Source of the DNA: Nitrospirota bacterium
GTDB lineage: Bacteria > Nitrospirota > Nitrospiria > Nitrospirales > Nitrospiraceae
NCBI GenBank assembly: GCA_963703955.1
Contig: CAVPGK010000022.1
Span: forward strand, 1-23,981
Length of the DNA: 23,981 nucleotides
Direction: 5' to 3'
The notes under the pieces: model-generated
What the model was told of the DNA's origin: nothing
Databases searched by the model: none
What the model saw: the letters and a program-made list of their open reading frames with translations, nothing else
Translations under genes and position numbers: made by a program
Shown here: piece by piece, positions 982 through 22,591 of the stretch
Position numbering within the stretch: the first letter of the stretch is position 1
Layout: the number at the start of each line of letters is the position of its first letter

Positions 982-3054
982 TCATTTCACCTTTGTCCCC
1001 GGCTCAGCATCATCCATCAGCGTCACCAATCCCCGCACTTCTTGATCCCCAGCCGCCAGCACCATGCCTTGCGACTCGATGCCCATCAGTTTGGCCGGTT
1101 TAAGGTTGGCCACAATCACGATTTTCTTCCCGACGAGCGGCTCCGGATCATACTTTTTCCCGATGCCGGCGACGATCTGGCGCTGCTCATCGCCGAGGTC
1201 AACTTGCAACTTGAGCAGTTTCTCCGACCTTGGCACCCGCTCGGCGGTCAACACAGTCGCCACCTTGAGCTGAATCTTTTGAAAGTCTTCGATCGTGATC
1301 TGGTGCCCACTAGGGACGGGTGCTGCGCCCCCCGGCGGCGCGGCTGGAGTGGGTGAAACCTGTGGTGAGTTGGCTTGCGGCTGCATCAACGTATGGTCGG
1401 CCACGCGAGACTCTCCTTGTGTCTTGGCCACGTCAATCCTAGGAAACAGTGGGCCGCCTTTCGCGATTTCTGTTCCCGGCAGGAGTCCGCCCCATGTGAT
1501 CTCAGCAGACAGGAGCGGCTTCGAAAAGTTCAACATCAGGCCAAGTTGGCGTTTCATTTCTTCGGCCGTTTGAGGCATGAAGGGGGAGAGAACCACGCAG
1601 AGGAATCGGAGTGTCTCCGCCGCGTGATACAGCACAGTCTCCAGCCGCGGCCTGTCCTCAGGTTTCTTGGCCAGTGTCCAGGGCGCAGTCTTATCGATAT
1701 ATTGATTACCGGCCTGAACCAGTTCCCACACCATTTCCAGAGCCCGGTTGAACTCCAGGTCAGTGACGCAACTCTCCACGACCTTAGGCGGGAGGTGCTC
1801 TGCGATCTGCCGTAGCTGTCGTTCCAGTTCCGTGTCGGCCGATATGTGTGGCTCCGGGATGGTGTTCTTTGCAAACCGTTCAATCAGCACGAGTGTCCGA
1901 TTGAGGAGATTGCCCAACCCATTGGCCAGGTCACTGTTGATTCGGCCTATCAGCGCCTCTCGGGAGAAATCACCATCATGGCCGAATGGCACCTCGCGCA
2001 AGAGGAAGTACCGAAAGGCGTCGGAGCCGAATTGATCGACCATCGCGTACGGGTCCACGACGTTTCCGCGGCTCTTCGACATTTTTTCGCCATTCACCGT
2101 CCACCACCCGTGCGCAAAGATTGTGCGGGGAGGCTCCAAACCGAGGGCTCTCAACATGGTGGCCCAATAGACGGAGTGGGTTGTAAGGATGTCCTTGCCG
2201 ATCAGGTGGTAATCCGCCGGCCACCACTGGTCAAAACGTCGCGGGTCTGAGGCATAGCCAGGGACCGAAATATAGTTCACCAGGGCGTCGAACCAAACGT
2301 AGGTCACATACTGAGGATCAAACGGAAGTTCAATGCCCCACGAAAGGCGAGCCTTGGGCCGTGAGATGGATAGATCTTCCAAAGGTCGTTGAAGGAACCC
2401 GAGGACCTCGTTTCTGCGCGCGCGGGGTTTGATGAAATCAGGGTGCTCCTCAATATAGGACTTGAGCCAGTCTTGGTACTTGCCCATCCGGAAAAAGTAA
2501 TTCTTTTCGCTCAGCCGTTCGACGGGACGCTTGCAATCCGGGCACAGAACGTTCTCTTTATCCTTCTGAATCCAAAAGGGGGCATTATCCCCCTTCCAAA
2601 AGGGAGCTTGATCGTCGGTCCAAAAGAGAACGTCTTTCTCTGTCCAGAACCGTTCGTCGAACGTGCAATACCAACCTGTGTAATCAGCAGAATAAATTTC
2701 ACCTTTCTCATAAAGTGCCTGTAAGGCGCTTTGGACGACCCCCTTGTGGCGAGGCTGTGTCGTCCGAACGAAGTCGTCGTTTGAGATAGTGAGTCGCTTC
2801 CACAGGTTTTGGAATTGAGGAGCGAGCTGGTCGCAATACCGCTGTGGGTCGATGCCGGCCTTTTGGGCAGCCTGCTGGACCTTTTGACCATGTTCGTCGA
2901 GGCCGGTCAGAAAGAACACCTCTTGCCCGGTCAATCGCCTAAAACGTGCCACAACATCGGCCGCGATCGTCGTGTAGGCGTGCCCGATGTGCGGGACATC
3001 GTTCACATAATAGATCGGGGTTGTGATGTAAAAGGTCTTGCGCATACCGGTCAA
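982..3054 (-). CDS. metG: Methionine--tRNA ligase with C-terminal tRNA-binding domain
   Basis: FYITTPIYYVNDVPHIGH (HIGH motif), KMSKS, a zinc knuckle ending CPDC, and a C-terminal Trbp111-like domain (ITIEDFQKIQLKVA...ESQGMVLAA). The start may be ATG 3045 rather than TTG 3054. Confidence 0.98.
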   Translation of the reverse strand: MTGMRKTFYITTPIYYVNDVPHIGHAYTTIAADVVARFRRLTGQEVFFLTGLDEHGQKVQQAAQKAGIDPQRYCDQLAPQFQNLWKRLTISNDDFVRTTQPRHKGVVQSALQALYEKGEIYSADYTGWYCTFDERFWTEKDVLFWTDDQAPFWKGDNAPFWIQKDKENVLCPDCKRPVERLSEKNYFFRMGKYQDWLKSYIEEHPDFIKPRARRNEVLGFLQRPLEDLSISRPKARLSWGIELPFDPQYVTYVWFDALVNYISVPGYASDPRRFDQWWPADYHLIGKDILTTHSVYWATMLRALGLEPPRTIFAHGWWTVNGEKMSKSRGNVVDPYAMVDQFGSDAFRYFLLREVPFGHDGDFSREALIGRINSDLANGLGNLLNRTLVLIERFAKNTIPEPHISADTELERQLRQIAEHLPPKVVESCVTDLEFNRALEMVWELVQAGNQYIDKTAPWTLAKKPEDRPRLETVLYHAAETLRFLCVVLSPFMPQTAEEMKRQLGLMLNFSKPLLSAEITWGGLLPGTEIAKGGPLFPRIDVAKTQGESRVADHTLMQPQANSPQVSPTPAAPPGGAAPVPSGHQITIEDFQKIQLKVATVLTAERVPRSEKLLKLQVDLGDEQRQIVAGIGKKYDPEPLVGKKIVIVANLKPAKLMGIESQGMVLAAGDQEVRGLVTLMDDAEPGTKVK

Positions 3055-5714: not shown

Positions 5715-5975
5715 GCAGGATGCTGAAAAAGGTCATCAACTTCGTTCTCGGCTCGCAAGAATCCTCAACGGAGGACCCGGCCGCCTCACCGGCTCGGCGG
5801 CGCGCACAAACGTGGTGCTCCTTATTCGTCGCACCGTGCGCCCCTTGAGGGTACGCTCCGGGGTCCGAGCTTCCTGCGGCCTTGTTGGACGGGAATGGGC
5901 GCGTCCCCCAGGTAAGAGAGCTGGTCTTGGCCAGCTCGGGGCCGGGCGGGTGTAAGTGGCCTTTTTGAGCATCCT
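5715..5975 (+). repeat. Type I palindromic element A, carrying a 62-bp cassette and a hairpin module
   Basis: Inverted ends AGGATGCTGAAAAAGGTCA (5717-5735) and TGGCCTTTTTGAGCATCCT (5957-5975), 17/19 match. The backbone is colinear with 9636-9758. Confidence 0.9.
5918..5952 (+). repeat. Hairpin module copy 1
   Basis: GAGCTGG-TCTTGG-CCAGCTC-GGGGCCGGGCGGGTG. Confidence 0.9.
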
Positions 5976-6008: not shown

Positions 6009-7802
6009 ATGAAAGGTCTTGGCGCAATTGTGATGGCGGCCGGGCTTGGGAAGCGGATGCGATCCAAGCTCGCGAAAGTCTTACATCCGGTCGCTGGACG
6101 TCCGATGGTGCTCTATGCCGTCGATCTGGCTGAACGGATTGTCGACGAAGGTATTGCTGTGGTGGTCGGTCACCAAGCGGACAAGGTCCGGGCGATACTT
6201 GAGGCGCACCAGGCCGCGAAGCCTGAGGCGGCTGCCAGCCGGGGGGCTGCGAAGCGAGCCAAAGGGATGACTGCACACGTCACCAATTCGGGGTTCAGGG
6301 CGCTGTCCGTTCTGATCGCTGACCAGGCGCAGCAACTGGGAACCGGCCACGCAGTGATGCAGGCCCGAGCGGCGTTCCTTCGAGCCCGCGGAGCGGCGGC
6401 CTCCGTCTATGTCATCCTGAACGGCGACACGCCGTTGCTGACGGAGTCGACGATCCAGGAACTGCTCCGGACTCACGAAACCGAGAAGGCGACCGTCACG
6501 ATCTTGACGGCCGTCCTGGACGATCCGTCGGGCTACGGGAGGATCGTGCGCCACGGGAAGGGGCGCGTCTTGGCGCGCCTGGGGCGGGCGGGTGAAACTA
6601 GCAGGGGGCGCGTCCCTCGGGAAGGAGCGCGTCTTGGCGTGCTTGGGGCGGGCGGGTGCAATAATCCAGAGAGCCTGTCTCGGCAGGCTCAGGGCGGGCG
6701 GGCGCGACGGCGTCTGGAGAAGGCGGGTGAAGCGGAAAAATCGTACGGAGACCGGCCAGTCCTCCGCATTGTAGAGGATCGAGATGCGACGGATGCTCAG
6801 TCGGCGCTGCGAGAAATCAATGTGGGGACGTATGTCGTAGACGGCCCGTTCTTGTTCGAGGCGCTGGATACGCTTCAGCCTCAGAATGCGCAGCAGGAAT
6901 ATTATTTGACCGATATCGTGAAGCTTGCGGTAGAGCGCGGCCTCAAGGTAGCCGCGTTGATCGCGAAAAATGCAGACGAGGTGATGGGGATCAATTCGCG
7001 CCAGCAGCTCGCGGCAGCGGAACGGGTCATGCGGAAGCGGATCTGTGAGCATTGGATGGAGGAAGGGGTCACACTCCGCGATCCTGCTACCGCGTCGATC
7101 GATGCCGACGTCCGGATCGGACAAGATTCGGTCTTGCATCCACACGTCACACTTGAAGGACGGACGAGAATCGGGCAGGACTGCGTGATTCGATCGCACT
7201 GTAGGATCACGGATAGCGTGTTGGGCGATCGAGTCGTTGTCCAGGACTGCTGCGTGGTTCGCGAGGCCAAGCTCGAAGATGACTCGATGGTCGGACCGTT
7301 TGCGCATCTGAGGCCGGGCGCAATCATTCGTCGGGCGGCCAAGGTCGGCAATTTCGTCGAGATGAAAAAAGCCGATTTAGGTGAAGGGTCCAAAGCCAAC
7401 CATCTGACCTATCTGGGCGACACTAAGATCGGAAAAGGTGTCAATATCGGGGCCGGCACCATCACGTGCAACTACGATGGGTTTCACAAGTTCGAAACTG
7501 TGATCGAAGATGACGTGTTCATTGGCAGCGATACACAGTTGATTGCCCCGGTCCGGATCGGACAGGGCGCGGTCGTAGCAGCAGGTTCTTCAGTGACCAA
7601 TGACGTGCCGGCTGACGCGCTCGCCATTGCCCGTGCGGTCCAGGTGAATCGCGAGGGCTGGGCCGAGCGGCGGCGGGCGTTGCTGACCACCGGCGGCCAG
7701 GCTCAGACCACACCCATCAGGCGAGAAGCAAACACCATGGCGTCGAGCCTCTCGCCTCGCGGCAAGGGAAGTGCGGCGAAGCAAAGGAAGGTGGGAAGGT
7801 AA
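6009..7802 (+). CDS. glmU: Bifunctional UDP-GlcNAc pyrophosphorylase / glucosamine-1-phosphate N-acetyltransferase, enlarged by in-frame insertions
   Basis: AAGLGKRMRSKLAKVLH, QLGTGHAV, GDTPL, GYGRIVR, EYYLTD, hexapeptide repeats, GPFAHLRP, GNFVEMK, HLTYLGD, GAGTITCNYDG. 597 aa against about 450-460 aa in typical orthologues. Confidence 0.97.
   Translation: MKGLGAIVMAAGLGKRMRSKLAKVLHPVAGRPMVLYAVDLAERIVDEGIAVVVGHQADKVRAILEAHQAAKPEAAASRGAAKRAKGMTAHVTNSGFRALSVLIADQAQQLGTGHAVMQARAAFLRARGAAASVYVILNGDTPLLTESTIQELLRTHETEKATVTILTAVLDDPSGYGRIVRHGKGRVLARLGRAGETSRGRVPREGARLGVLGAGGCNNPESLSRQAQGGRARRRLEKAGEAEKSYGDRPVLRIVEDRDATDAQSALREINVGTYVVDGPFLFEALDTLQPQNAQQEYYLTDIVKLAVERGLKVAALIAKNADEVMGINSRQQLAAAERVMRKRICEHWMEEGVTLRDPATASIDADVRIGQDSVLHPHVTLEGRTRIGQDCVIRSHCRITDSVLGDRVVVQDCCVVREAKLEDDSMVGPFAHLRPGAIIRRAAKVGNFVEMKKADLGEGSKANHLTYLGDTKIGKGVNIGAGTITCNYDGFHKFETVIEDDVFIGSDTQLIAPVRIGQGAVVAAGSSVTNDVPADALAIARAVQVNREGWAERRRALLTTGGQAQTTPIRREANTMASSLSPRGKGSAAKQRKVGR
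6554..6732 (+). repeat. Cluster of hairpin module copies 2-4 plus fragments inside glmU
   Basis: Stem-loops at 6561-6580, 6625-6644 and 6671-6690, each followed by the G-rich tail. Head fragment at 6606-6614 and orphan tail at 6722-6732. Confidence 0.92.
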
Positions 7803-7804
7803 CC

Positions 7805-9634
7805 ATGTGTGGCATTGTCGGCTACGTCGGCGACCAGGATGCTGTCCCCATTCTCCTGAATGGTCTCAAACGACTGGAATATCGGGGGTACGATTCCGCG
7901 GGAATCGCCATCGTGCATCAGGGCAAGATCGAGGTGCGGCGCAGCGTCGGAAAATTGGCGAATCTGGAAAAGATGCTGAGCGGCAATGGCCTCAAGGGGA
8001 CCACCGGAATCGGCCATACCCGTTGGGCCACCCACGGTAAACCATCGGAGCAGAACGCGCATCCCCATCGGTCTGGGGGATACGTGCTGGTCCACAACGG
8101 CATCATCGAGAACTTCTTGCCGCTCAAGCAACAGCTCCAGAAAGAGGGCTATCGCTTCGAATCTGAAACCGACACCGAGGTCGTAGCCCATCTTATCGCG
8201 CGTGCACACAAACCAGGGCGGACGCTGGCGGACGCCGTCCTGGCGGCTACACAGGAGATCCGCGGCAGCTATGCCATTGCCGCCGTCTGTGAAGGCGAGC
8301 CGGATACGTTGGTGGCGGCCCGATCGGGCTGCCCGCTCGTGATCGGCCGAAACGGCAAGGCAACCGTGGTGGCGTCCGATGTCATGGCCATATTGGCGCA
8401 CACGCGGGATGTGACGTATCTCGAAGAAGGTGACTTGGCTGTGGTGACCTTGGACGAGGTCCGGATGATGGATGCCAAAGGGCATCCGATTACTCGACCA
8501 TCGACCCGCATTACCTGGGATGCGGAGGCGGCTGAAAAGAGCGGGTACCCGCATTTCATGTTGAAGGAGATTCACGAACAGCCGCAGACGATCCTGGATA
8601 CGATGCGCGGCCGGTACACCTTTGAAACCGGCGCGGCCGATCTTCCTGATATCGGCCTGACCGCAGATCAATTGGCGGCGGCGGGGAAGATCTGGATTGT
8701 GGCCTGCGGCACATCCTGGCATGCAGGTTTGGTGGGGAAATATTTGATTGAGGAGATGGTCAAGGCCCCAGTCCAGGTGGATATCGCCTCGGAATTTCGC
8801 TATCGCGATCCACTGGTTCAAAAAGATGATTTGTTTCTGACCATCTCTCAGTCCGGCGAAACGGCGGATACGCTGGCAGCGGCGCGAGAGGCCAAGGTGA
8901 AGGGAGCGAAGGTCCTGTCGATTGTGAATGTCGTCGGCAGTACGTTGGCCCGCGAATCGGACGGCGTGCTCTATACCCACTGCGGTCCTGAGATCGGGGT
9001 GGCGTCGACGAAGGCCTTCACCGGGCAACTGACGGCCCTCTATCTCCTTTCACTGCATCTGGGGCGTGTGCGAGGTCTGCTCAATGCCAATGACGGACGG
9101 ATCTGGCTCGAACGCTTTGTGTCACTGCCGAGCCGTGTTGAACACATTCTAAAACGCGAGGCGGAGCTCGTGGCCATTGCAAAGCGATACTACACCAAAC
9201 GGAATTTCCTGTATTTGGGGCGCGGCATCAACTATCCCATCGCCCTGGAAGGCGCGCTCAAACTGAAAGAGATCTCGTATATTCATGCGGAAGGGTATGC
9301 CGCCGGGGAGATGAAGCACGGGCCGATTGCGCTGATCGACAAAGACATGCCGGTCGTGGTATTAGCCCCCCGCGACCGCCTGTATGAAAAGACCGTCAGC
9401 AACCTCATGGAAGTCAAAGCCCGTAAGGCGCCGGTGATCGCCTTTGTCAGCGAGGGTGAACGAGATCTTGGCAAGGCAGCCGACGCCGTGTTTACGATCC
9501 CAGACGTGCCGGCGTTGCTCACACCGATCTTGTTCACGGTCGCGCTGCAACTGCTGGCCTATCACGTTGCCGTGCTGCGGGGGACGGATGTGGATCAGCC
9601 GAGGAATCTCGCCAAAAGCGTCACGGTGGAATAG
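7805..9634 (+). CDS. glmS: Glutamine--fructose-6-phosphate aminotransferase (isomerizing)
   Basis: MCGIVG, EYRGYDSAG, GHTRWATHG, SQSGETADT, C-terminal DQPRNLAKSVTVE. Confidence 0.99.
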   Translation: MCGIVGYVGDQDAVPILLNGLKRLEYRGYDSAGIAIVHQGKIEVRRSVGKLANLEKMLSGNGLKGTTGIGHTRWATHGKPSEQNAHPHRSGGYVLVHNGIIENFLPLKQQLQKEGYRFESETDTEVVAHLIARAHKPGRTLADAVLAATQEIRGSYAIAAVCEGEPDTLVAARSGCPLVIGRNGKATVVASDVMAILAHTRDVTYLEEGDLAVVTLDEVRMMDAKGHPITRPSTRITWDAEAAEKSGYPHFMLKEIHEQPQTILDTMRGRYTFETGAADLPDIGLTADQLAAAGKIWIVACGTSWHAGLVGKYLIEEMVKAPVQVDIASEFRYRDPLVQKDDLFLTISQSGETADTLAAAREAKVKGAKVLSIVNVVGSTLARESDGVLYTHCGPEIGVASTKAFTGQLTALYLLSLHLGRVRGLLNANDGRIWLERFVSLPSRVEHILKREAELVAIAKRYYTKRNFLYLGRGINYPIALEGALKLKEISYIHAEGYAAGEMKHGPIALIDKDMPVVVLAPRDRLYEKTVSNLMEVKARKAPVIAFVSEGERDLGKAADAVFTIPDVPALLTPILFTVALQLLAYHVAVLRGTDVDQPRNLAKSVTVE

Positions 9635-9758
9635 CAGGATGCTGAAAAAGGTCCCCAACTTCGTTCTCGCTCGGCCGAAATCCTCACGTACCCCCTGAGG
9701 GTACGCTCCGGTGTTCGCCCTCACTGCGGCCTTGTTGGATGCCCTTTTTGAGCATCCT
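9632..9758 (+). repeat. Type I palindromic element B, minimal empty backbone
   Basis: TAGCAGGATGCTGAAAAAGG (9632-9651) ... CCTTTTTGAGCATCCT (9743-9758). The leading TAG is the glmS stop codon. Confidence 0.9.
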
Positions 9759-15547: not shown

Positions 15548-15725
15548 GAGTGGTGGCACTGACTCCAGGTGCTCGCAGAGCGCGCACGATAAGAATGTGC
15601 TCGCCTTGGGAGAGGGCTCGTCTCGGCGAGCCCAGGGTGGGCGGGTGAAGAAAAAGGGGCGCGTCTTGGCGCGCCTGGGGCGGGTGGGTGAAATATGCGC
15701 GCAGTTGGAGTCAGTTCCACCACTC
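15548..15725. repeat. Type II palindromic element, filled form with hairpin module copies 5 and 6
   Basis: 20-bp arms GAGTGGTGGCACTGACTCCA (15548-15567) and 15706-15725 (1 mismatch). The core matches 873-972 reversed, with a 90-bp insert (15605-15694) holding stems 15614-15633 and 15657-15676. Confidence 0.92.
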
Positions 15726-17530: not shown

Positions 17531-17620
17531 GCCTGCTCGGGGGGGCACTCCGGGTGAAAGGGCTGGTCTTGGCCAGCTCGGGGCCGGACGGGTGACATAG
17601 TTGCTGGGGCGGGTGGGTGA
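17529..17620 (+). repeat. Hairpin module copy 7 with a flanking head fragment and orphan tail, no backbone
   Basis: GGGCTGG-TCTTGG-CCAGCTC-GGGGCCGGACGGGTG (17560-17594). Head GAGCCTGCTCGG at 17529-17540, tail GGGGCGGGTGGGTG at 17606-17619. Confidence 0.85.
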
Positions 17621-17622
17621 AA

Positions 17623-18510: not shown

Positions 18511-18900
18511 CAGGCTGTTGAAAAACTCGCGCGGTGGCTCGGTATGAACGTCGTGAGCAATACGACACGCGATACCATACCATCCTCCAGGATGTTCAAA
18601 AAGGCTCATTCCACCCGCCGACCCCAGGCGCGCCGAGACGCGCCCCTTCCCGTACAAGGCCGCAGCGAGGCGCACGGTGGGACGAATAAGGAGCACCACG
18701 CTTGTGCGCGCCGCCGAGTTGGTGAGGCGGCGGTGTCTTCAAGCCGAAGCGTAGTTGTCTTCACCCGCCCTGCCCGAGCGCGCCGAGACGCGCTCTTTCC
18801 CGAGACGGTACGTTGAGGCTTGAAAATAAAGCATGCGACTATCCAGCGAAGCTGGACATAGGAGATACGAAGCTGGAGGCCTTTTTCAACCTCCTGCTAG
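18507..18900 (-). mobile_element. Type I element C: MITE-like composite bounded by CTAG, carrying the 62-bp cassette and hairpin copies 8 and 9
   Basis: Outer inverted ends CTAGCAGGCTGTTGAAAAA (18507-18525) and TTTTTCAACCTCCTGCTAG (18882-18900), 17/19 match. Inner end AGGATGTTCAAAAAGGC (18589-18605). Hairpin modules at 18612-18652 and 18762-18802, cassette at 18669-18730. Mobility is inferred. Confidence 0.8.
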
Positions 18901-21014: not shown

Positions 21015-21515
21015 ATGGAGAAAATTGGTGAATCCGTACGACCGCTGCTTGTCGGTATGACCGGCGGCCTGGTTGCCGGCATACTCGTCCTGGACATGAT
21101 GCTCCCTCTGGGGCTGGCAGGAATGCTCTATGTCGCCCTCGCGATGATTTCATTATGGTCGCCGAAGCGAACCTTTACTCTCACCGTAGCGGGCGCCTGT
21201 ACGGCGTTGATCCTCTTTGATTACCATCACGCTCCCCGCGAGAGTGAGACGGTGCTGGCCATCGCCAACCGCGGCCTGGCCTTGCTGGCGATTTGGGTCA
21301 CGGCGATTCTGTCTCTCTTACGCACTCGCGACCAGGAGGATATCCAGATTCTCCGGAGCCTACTGCCCTTGTGCGCGACCTGCAAAAAGATACGAGATCC
21401 GAGGGGAGTCTGGCATCAGCTCGAACAATACCTCAAAGACAACTCGCAAATGGAATTTTCCCGCAGTCTTTGTCCGGAATGCCGGAAAAAATGGGTGCCC
21501 GGAGCGACGGCCTAG
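21015..21515 (+). CDS. Small membrane protein with a C-terminal CxxCKKIRD...CPxC motif
   Basis: GGAGG at 21005-21009 before ATG 21015. About four hydrophobic segments, then LLPLCATCKKIRDPRGVWHQLEQYL...FSRSLCPEC. The ORF-track start at 20673 overlaps the opposite-strand gene. Confidence 0.8.
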   Translation: MEKIGESVRPLLVGMTGGLVAGILVLDMMLPLGLAGMLYVALAMISLWSPKRTFTLTVAGACTALILFDYHHAPRESETVLAIANRGLALLAIWVTAILSLLRTRDQEDIQILRSLLPLCATCKKIRDPRGVWHQLEQYLKDNSQMEFSRSLCPECRKKWVPGATA

Positions 21516-22591
21516 TGTAGTGCGTCTAACGCTTCTTTACATTGGGCGACTTTGGTCAAGATATTCCCCACCGAGGCGGTCCACACGAATACCCGGGGGT
21601 TCTGATTGTGATTGTCCAGGTACTGTGTGATCGCAGCGATCAATTCCCGCACATGCTGGAAGCTGCCGCGCCGGATGCGTTTGTCGGTGAGATCGCGGAA
21701 CCAGCGCTCGACCAGGTTCAGCCAGGAACTGGAGGTTGGGATAAAGTGCAGATGGAACCGCGGATGCCGTTGGAGCCAGGCTTTCACCCGTGGGTGCTTG
21801 TGCGTCCCGTAATTGTCCACGATCAGATGCAGGTCGAGCTCGGACGGGGTTTCGGCCTCGATCTTTGCGAGGAAGCGAATGAACTCCTGATGCCGATGCC
21901 GCGGCATGCAGTCGCCGATCACCTTGCCGTCGAGCATGCTCAGGGCTGCAAACAAGGTGGTCGTGCCATGGCGTTTGTAATCGTGCGTCATCGTGCCACA
22001 ACGGCCCTTCTTCAACGGAAGGCCCGGCTGGGTGCGGTCGAGGGCTTGGATCTGACTTTTCTCGTCGACGCACAGGACCAGGGACTTGTCCGGGGGATTG
22101 AGATAGAGCCCCACGACATCGTAGAGCTTCTCGACAAACTGCTTGTCGCGGCTGAGCTTGAAGGTCTTGATGAGATGGGGCTTGAGGTTGTGTCGCTTCC
22201 AGATCCGCCGCACCGTCGCTTCGCTGAGGCCTTGGGCCTTGGCCATACTCCGGGTGCTCCAGTGGGTCGCAGCCGGTGGGGTCGTGTGCAGTGTCGCCTC
22301 GACGACGGCCCGCACTTTGCGTTCGGGGATGCGTGGCAGACGACCGGGACGTGGCGCATCCTTTTCGAACCCTGCCAAGCGCAGAGCCAGAAACCGCTCC
22401 CGCCAAAGCTGCACCGTGGGTCTGGAGATGGTCAATGTTCGGGCGATTCCCTGATTGCTGACGCCATCGGCCGCCAACTGGACGATCCGCGCTCGCTGCA
22501 CCAGGCGAAAGGGGACACGCCGACCCTGGGCCCATGTCCTCAGGGCCGAGCGCTCCATAGGGGACAGCTGGATAGGGGCCGCGGTTCTCAT
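21512..22591 (-). CDS. IS630-family DDE transposase
   Basis: N-terminal HTH, HWSTRSMA, VLCVDEKSQIQAL, IVDNYGTHK, SSWLNLVERWF, with 35 residues between the second D and the E. Confidence 0.96.
   Translation of the reverse strand: MRTAAPIQLSPMERSALRTWAQGRRVPFRLVQRARIVQLAADGVSNQGIARTLTISRPTVQLWRERFLALRLAGFEKDAPRPGRLPRIPERKVRAVVEATLHTTPPAATHWSTRSMAKAQGLSEATVRRIWKRHNLKPHLIKTFKLSRDKQFVEKLYDVVGLYLNPPDKSLVLCVDEKSQIQALDRTQPGLPLKKGRCGTMTHDYKRHGTTTLFAALSMLDGKVIGDCMPRHRHQEFIRFLAKIEAETPSELDLHLIVDNYGTHKHPRVKAWLQRHPRFHLHFIPTSSSWLNLVERWFRDLTDKRIRRGSFQHVRELIAAITQYLDNHNQNPRVFVWTASVGNILTKVAQCKEALDALH

Follow-up and report, generated by a model that had tools for sequence, protein, structure and literature searches.

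A nested array of 45-nt hairpin repeats lies in frame in GlmU of a Nitrospirota bacterium and is likely translated as a passenger loop

The glmU gene of the Nitrospirota bacterium considered here carries a four-copy array of a 45-base hairpin repeat within its open reading frame. We think it quite probable that this array is non-autonomous mobile DNA, likely translated as a tolerated passenger loop of a GlmU that probably works. The gene lies in a window of 23,981 nt, the whole stretch of DNA that was analyzed. Its product scores 549.7 bits against the glmU model TIGR01173 (cut-off 366.85), with both domains present, and its best fold matches are GlmU structures; glmS follows directly at 7805–9634, the gene order glmU–glmS being intact. 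The gene and its insert are laid out as follows.

6009–7802, + strand: glmU, a 597-aa open reading frame and the sole copy found in the genome.
6552–6731, + strand: repeat-derived in-frame insert, 180 nt or 60 codons (4 × 45 nt), residues 182–241.
6552–6596, + strand: module D, intact, 45 nt (profile match 6552–6597).
6597–6614, + strand: putative 5′ arm of outer module A, up to the hairpin loop, assigned from the nested pattern seen elsewhere.
6615–6660, + strand: module B, nested in A (profile match 6615–6661), with TGC where most copies have TGA.
6661–6710, + strand: module C, nested in A, its 5′ end worn and its stem of the other subtype (profile match 6668–6702).
6711–6731, + strand: putative 3′ arm and G-rich tail of outer module A, diverged.
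6732–6758, + strand: remainder of the native variable loop (AEKSYGDRP), from comparison with relatives.

The original prediction placed 69 codons between the motifs GYGRIVR and VLRIVEDRD, and that count is correct; the whole stretch from GYGR to EDRD comprises 85 residues. It also assigned most of this DNA to module copies and fragments. Module DNA is indeed there, but the inserted part is 60 of the 69 codons (6552–6731), the rest being native loop, and what were called "fragments" are one further module, the fourth, cut in two by nested copies. One module (D) stands free and two (B and C) sit in the hairpin loop of the fourth (A), with piece lengths of 45 + 18 + 46 + 50 + 21 = 180 nt, the borders being uncertain by a few bases. 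As predicted, each of the three intact hairpin modules has a reading frame of its own; D and A share one frame, and B and C are read in two others. The four copies have diverged from one another, and the residues that they encode include 13 Gly, 12 Arg, and 7 Ala. The frame in which B is read has TGA in 55 of 89 genome copies, and the TGC codon of B corresponds to Trp in the two other array-bearing GlmU proteins described below.

Alignment with orthologues confirms that the insert is absent from relatives, with a net difference of +60 aa from the nearest empty one (G019/L002). Of 29 relatives' loci retrieved, 28 yielded the stretch from GYGR to EDxD, which measures 21–31 aa in every one of them; the same range holds for 115 of 117 other proteins in the database, the remaining two having 35 and 40. 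The turn itself therefore has 5–15 residues in this family, not the 4–5 first taken as typical, and the spread among relatives indicates that the insertion site is a naturally variable loop. A second lineage-specific extension is found at residues ∼70–100 of the same protein (6216–6310), where 59 residues separate GHQ from QLGT, compared with 27–36 in most relatives and 57–62 in three; it is modeled with low confidence and has no module match.

Two further GlmU proteins, whose assemblies come from different sources, have arrays at this very codon and share a core with this insert. P0003 is full length (613 aa) and has 101 residues in the loop. Judged by its peptides, it is without D (15 residues fewer), has an extra module nested in B, and has one more after A, which at the level of the protein gives three module-sized steps of −15, +16, and +15 aa. 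P0002 has 82 residues in the loop and, as far as the protein tells, apparently reads D in another frame; its gene is frameshifted further on, which is either an error or the mark of a dead copy and makes it weaker evidence than P0003. The DNA of neither was found when metagenome and genome contigs were scanned by pattern and by protein. The 60-aa insert, used as a query on longer proteins in a search that is weak for 15-aa peptides, returned only the three GlmUs; the protein search for carriers returns in-frame arrays only. The presence of three differently built arrays at one site suggests that modules are still gained or lost there.

The repeat was followed with a profile grown from the copies in the window and then run on the genome and on the reversed genome, giving 108 matches in 79 arrays in the former and none in the latter. 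Each module opens with a purine-rich 5′ flank, followed by an 8-bp hairpin and then a G-rich tail. The hairpin tip is an invariant GTC-YY-GGC with one T·G wobble, and because of this single T·G pair the two strands differ. Among 99 distinct cores the stem covaries, with Watson–Crick pairing of 0.93, 0.87, and 0.82 at the variable pairs, as against 0.45, 0.37, and 0.44 when shuffled, and 61 of these cores have four G3 tracts. A quadruplex appears in one folding prediction, made for the whole insert as DNA, and in none for a single module or for RNA. Of 41 arrays located between co-directional genes, 36 place the G-rich strand on the mRNA.

The repeat is widespread in Nitrospiraceae, the insert being matched in 114 of 150 genomes. 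A strict pattern occurs in 9 of 28 family genomes, with 45 matches in this one, whereas it occurs in none of 172 genomes from other families of the phylum. Among the matches listed, 114 of 116 genome-collection loci bear the name of Nitrospirota, or of some group inside it, in their titles, and in that sense the module is nearly confined to this phylum. Plasmids and viral contigs gave no module match, and the only Rfam match, at E 0.82, is attributable to chance. On different contigs of this genome (G000; C8:10196–10380 and C20:90833–91017) lie two three-module arrays that are near-identical and share identical upstream flanks; they represent either a duplicated region or a strain mixture in the assembly.

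Modules also sit inside other palindromes and MITE-like elements, of which empty forms exist. Examples from the window, together with one intergenic copy, are listed here.

5715–5975, + strand: MITE-like element upstream of glmU, holding a 5′ arm and a nested module (5910–5955).
15548–15725, + strand: larger palindrome filled with two modules (15605–15693); an empty form lies at 873–972, − strand.
17554–17622, + strand: intergenic module with a second G-rich tail, just before era (profile).
18610–18804, − strand: two modules within a MITE-like element (profile and end motifs).

Empty and filled host elements differ by 42–48 nt in 8 of 10 cases and show no consistent target-site duplication, the sites being diverged. 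A module nested in the hairpin loop of another has the same orientation as its host in 13 of 13 intergenic cases, although the pattern could find that orientation only; the added length is 45 nt in 7 of these 13 and a multiple of three in 9. That the unit stays near 45 nt even between genes suggests that frame-keeping comes largely from unit size. We considered in-frame totals as proof of selection on frame and gave the argument up, as it is weakened by the 14 of 23 non-coding insertions (one coding row left out) that are also multiples of three. Arrays lie at most 250 nt from a MITE-like end in 13 of 79 instances. The genome has 80 MITE-like end motifs, with the module housed at a fixed place near one end, and the window has MITE-like elements with inverted ends at 5715–5975, 9634–9758, and 18589–18899. 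Parsing the genome for the larger palindrome gave 13 copies in the empty form and 3 in the filled one. At six loci (L231, L204, L253, L261, L207, and L254), tail-outward module pairs lie 36–45 nt apart with the same MITE-internal segment between them.

Coding sequence is strongly depleted of arrays, holding 13 of the 79 in a genome of which ∼78% is coding by our own gene calls. Eight of the 13 are interior and in frame, four sense and four antisense; they lie in genes for an Lhr helicase, an alpha/beta hydrolase, a copper ATPase (linker), an SDR, an MBL-fold protein, PxpB, a proteasome-type ATPase, and GlmU. The other five occupy C-terminal tails, behind domains that are complete or almost so; two further arrays are probably mis-called starts. 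When six of the seven interior cases other than GlmU were compared with orthologues (the copper ATPase lying outside the comparison), the segment was absent there, with ∼13–45 extra residues here: 12–18 in Lhr, 13–14 in the SDR, 21 in the proteasome-type ATPase, 26–30 in the hydrolase, 42 in the MBL-fold protein (28 versus one of five orthologues), and 45 in PxpB, next to 60 in GlmU.

In other genomes, 101 matches had sufficient flanking sequence; 20 of them fall within open frames whose flanks look coding, and 18 of these have Pfam families. The hosts include a DNA polymerase III alpha-type PHP domain, a complex I chain 5 subunit, three AcrB/CusA-type pumps, and three M28 peptidases, the latter two triplets being non-independent, with shared sites. 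These cases rest on open frames and Pfam, the orthologue comparison having been made in this genome only. The expectation that module peptides would turn up in other conserved proteins is thus borne out by seven more genes here and ∼18 loci elsewhere. Alpha/beta hydrolase genes have antisense modules in four genomes (L151, L156, L238, and L042), at three or more places, and are a possible hot spot. Short protein repeats of another kind are found in metG (982–3054, − strand), whose knuckle region has three Trp-anchored repeats (FWTDDQAP, FWKGDNAP, and FWIQKDK) that are not module-derived by profile.

Differently built in-frame arrays in two other assemblies argue against an assembly artefact, one of two circumstances that the original prediction had named as able to overturn it. 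Short-read assemblies break at such repeats, and the 5′ junction of the insert is bridged by no contig searched. Against stitching stand the shared core and common codon of arrays from different sources, the mutual divergence of the four copies, and a soil-metagenome contig (run X1) that runs across the 3′ junction (6640–6842) with a single difference; repeat copies were almost certainly not joined to glmU by the assembler. RNA contigs (runs X10 and X16) match parts of glmU, none reaching the insert. Contigs of run X2 show 29 synonymous and 9 nonsynonymous differences, an excess that we set aside because the insert lies outside their cover. That splicing or translational bypass takes the array out, in the RNA or at the ribosome, and leaves the mature enzyme with a normal turn is very unlikely. 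The strong RNA structure predicted for the insert would suit such a route, but the three arrays are all in frame without stops, the usual TGA is missing where that frame is read, and the interior coding copies fall on either strand in equal number; moreover, our gene calls contain no frame-breaking mid-domain copy, although an element that is skipped could afford one, and no Rfam match was obtained.

Two other alternatives concern the state of the enzyme, which in its sequence bears no sign of decay. This GlmU has four departures from 90%-conserved columns, all mild (median of the others, 5); in the N-terminal domain there are three, again mild, where the family median is 2. As to the other circumstance named at the outset, an inactive copy here beside another glmU, tblastn found one copy only in the 3.3-Mb, 82%-complete genome, and the sole other match of the GlmU search was an intergenic array of the repeat itself. 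In the AlphaFold model the nucleotidyltransferase core has a pLDDT >90, and the insert is hung between strands 178–181 and 251–255 (blocks with pLDDT of 93–94). Residues 197–219 fall below 50, and helices at 184–194 and 221–246 are predicted with middling confidence (59–75), so that disorder may not extend through the whole loop. The insert-bearing GlmU probably still works, and the insert is likely translated, as a tolerated flexible loop. GlmU is widely held to be essential, with exceptions described in 10.64898/2026.06.23.733835. That the insert has crippled the uridyltransferase half, with another enzyme supplying UDP-GlcNAc, seems to us quite improbable. It does sit in the uridyltransferase domain, flanked by two conserved motifs (GYGR and IVE), alternative uridyltransferases are reported (GlmR in PMC10128056; NagU in 10.64898/2026.06.23.733835), and P0002 is frameshifted downstream; because the genome is 82% complete, a second UDP-GlcNAc enzyme could also be missing from it. 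The near-typical N-terminal domain speaks against this loss, as do the two full-length carriers, the intact glmU–glmS order, and the lack of a genome match to the GlmR/YvcK family (PF01933), in a search whose control rang in 11 of 14; in the corresponding NagU-type search the control was silent. We also find it improbable that the array has been recruited, either to give the protein a basic surface or to slow glmU–glmS translation through a stable structure in the mRNA. A core kept in three lineages ∼5% apart in their flanks would fit recruitment, as would the predicted RNA fold of the insert (−88 kcal/mol for the coding strand versus −49 for the other), the helices modeled in part of it, and the bias of the G-rich strand toward the mRNA. 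The insert core, however, evolves at roughly three times the rate of the enzyme: relative to P0003, 24 of 529 flank residues differ (4.5%) versus 4 of 30 in the shared core (13%; p = 0.056), and relative to P0002, 13 of 252 (5%) versus 7 of 30 (23%; p = 0.002, possibly inflated by errors). The three carriers also disagree in how many modules they have and in what order, unrelated proteins read the same DNA from both strands and in different frames, and 117 of 120 homologues have no array.

We return to non-autonomous mobile DNA, the modules of which were likely put into the GlmU loop one after another. We propose that the G-rich single strand would be recognized through its hairpin, with the GTC-YY-GGC tip, and copied into hairpin DNA by an enzyme acting in trans. 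The unit, at 15 codons, is open in five of six frames (six in copies without TGA), such that the majority of insertions would keep the frame; selection would clear most coding insertions and spare loops, linkers, and tails. A module in a permissive loop would itself be a target, allowing the loop to grow or shrink in steps of ∼15 residues. The route of mobilization is the weakest step of this explanation, and we offer it tentatively, as something that may well prove otherwise.

No Y1 transposase (PF01797) was found in this 82%-complete genome, and no module was contained in 34 distinct Y1-transposase loci, taken as the best ones in 63 of 101 genomes. Among DUF559 loci, 1 of 30 had a module, far from the gene. 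GIY-YIG genes in the module's own genome showed no link to it, nor did a search for inward-facing module pairs around a small gene reveal one; the module was found beside no small nuclease gene. Stand-alone DUF559 genes in family genomes (L089–L107) are bracketed by inward-facing repeats of at least two types, each a hairpin with a G-rich tail, and these repeats of like outline are a lead only as to the mobilizer. The 359-aa open reading frame at 21512–22591 (− strand) is a putative IS630-family transposase. A bolder reading, which we regard as doubtful, is that the module is a codon-sized selfish 45-bp element with a G-quadruplex-prone tail, homing into hairpin loops, including its own, without an enzyme of its own. 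If this were true, protein loops would have been lengthened across the nitrifier family in quantized 15-residue steps, even in housekeeping enzymes (GlmU, the DNA polymerase III alpha-type PHP domain, and the complex I subunit), and this lineage's GlmU would show such growth as a living series. For the quadruplex, this reading draws only on the 61 of 99 cores and the single folding prediction given above.

Apart from mechanism, GlmU offers an unusually clear series, in which one loop of a normally essential enzyme is found empty and filled three ways, and these alleles make the neutrality of repeat-derived loops directly testable. The 45-nt unit would explain frequent frame-keeping without selection on each event, and the ∼25 tolerated sites form a natural map of permissive loops. 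Where repeats are said to drive the creation of protein sequence, what results in GlmU is a loop that evolves fast and probably has no function.

In-frame palindromes in conserved genes are already known, whereas this repeat family is apparently undescribed, no account of it having been found in the openly listed literature. In outline the module resembles the repeats that flank DUF559 genes in the same bacterial family, which likewise have a hairpin and then a G-rich tail with GGGTGA, but the stem and loop differ and the module profile does not match them. Unlike a MITE, the module is without terminal inverted repeats, and it is a passenger in MITE-like hosts. Elhai et al. in 2008 reportedly described SDR elements of 21–27 nt that lie in frame in genes. 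The SDR of Nostocaceae are very small mobile repeats with a palindromic target, which for SDR5 is HIP1 (PMC3116915, PMC5861425); compared by description only, the module is about twice their size, belongs to another phylum, and has another target. Multicopy sequences within Geobacter genes have also been reported (PMC2700814), and one Nitrospira genome figures in a count table of PMC12306157.

The other close parallels are the tagged REPs and the RPE. GTAG- and CGTC-tagged REPs are short hairpins that are single, paired, or clustered, some of them inside known proteins; their clusters code for 43–82 aa, CGTC families have no linked transposase, and some REP families lie inside larger palindromes (PMC3733652, the main text of which does not contain "Nitrospir"). 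The module likewise is a short hairpin, clustered, found in proteins and inside larger palindromes, and without a linked transposase. It has no unpaired terminal tag, however; the CGTC of its commonest subtype is in the stem and covaries, and its arrays are head-to-tail or nested whereas REPs are mainly inverted dimers. In the loci searched it also lacks the flanking RAYT (Y1 tyrosine transposase) of GTAG REPs and REPINs. The RPE of Rickettsia is a palindromic repeat found between genes and in frame in conserved proteins, in 19 genes, and one enzyme that bears an RPE, Gmk, is translated and retains activity, its affinity for substrate being altered (PMC2229807). The module too is a dispersed palindrome, intergenic and in-frame intragenic and absent from the orthologues compared. 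The original comparison of the glmU insert with RPE thus holds for a repeat-derived in-frame insertion in a conserved single-copy gene, given the empty orthologues, the three arrays at the site, and no second glmU found. Compared by features, an RPE is a 105–146-bp stem-loop with terminal inverted repeats; the module is 45 bp, a short hairpin with a G-rich tail, nests in itself, has no terminal inverted repeats, and resides in free-living Nitrospiraceae. Failing the tests of REP tag, RAYT, and MITE and not being an RPE, it would work like these systems without belonging to any of them. With it, the mobile palindromes known to write new protein sequence, a short list, gain a free-living phylum and a repeat family that is apparently undescribed.
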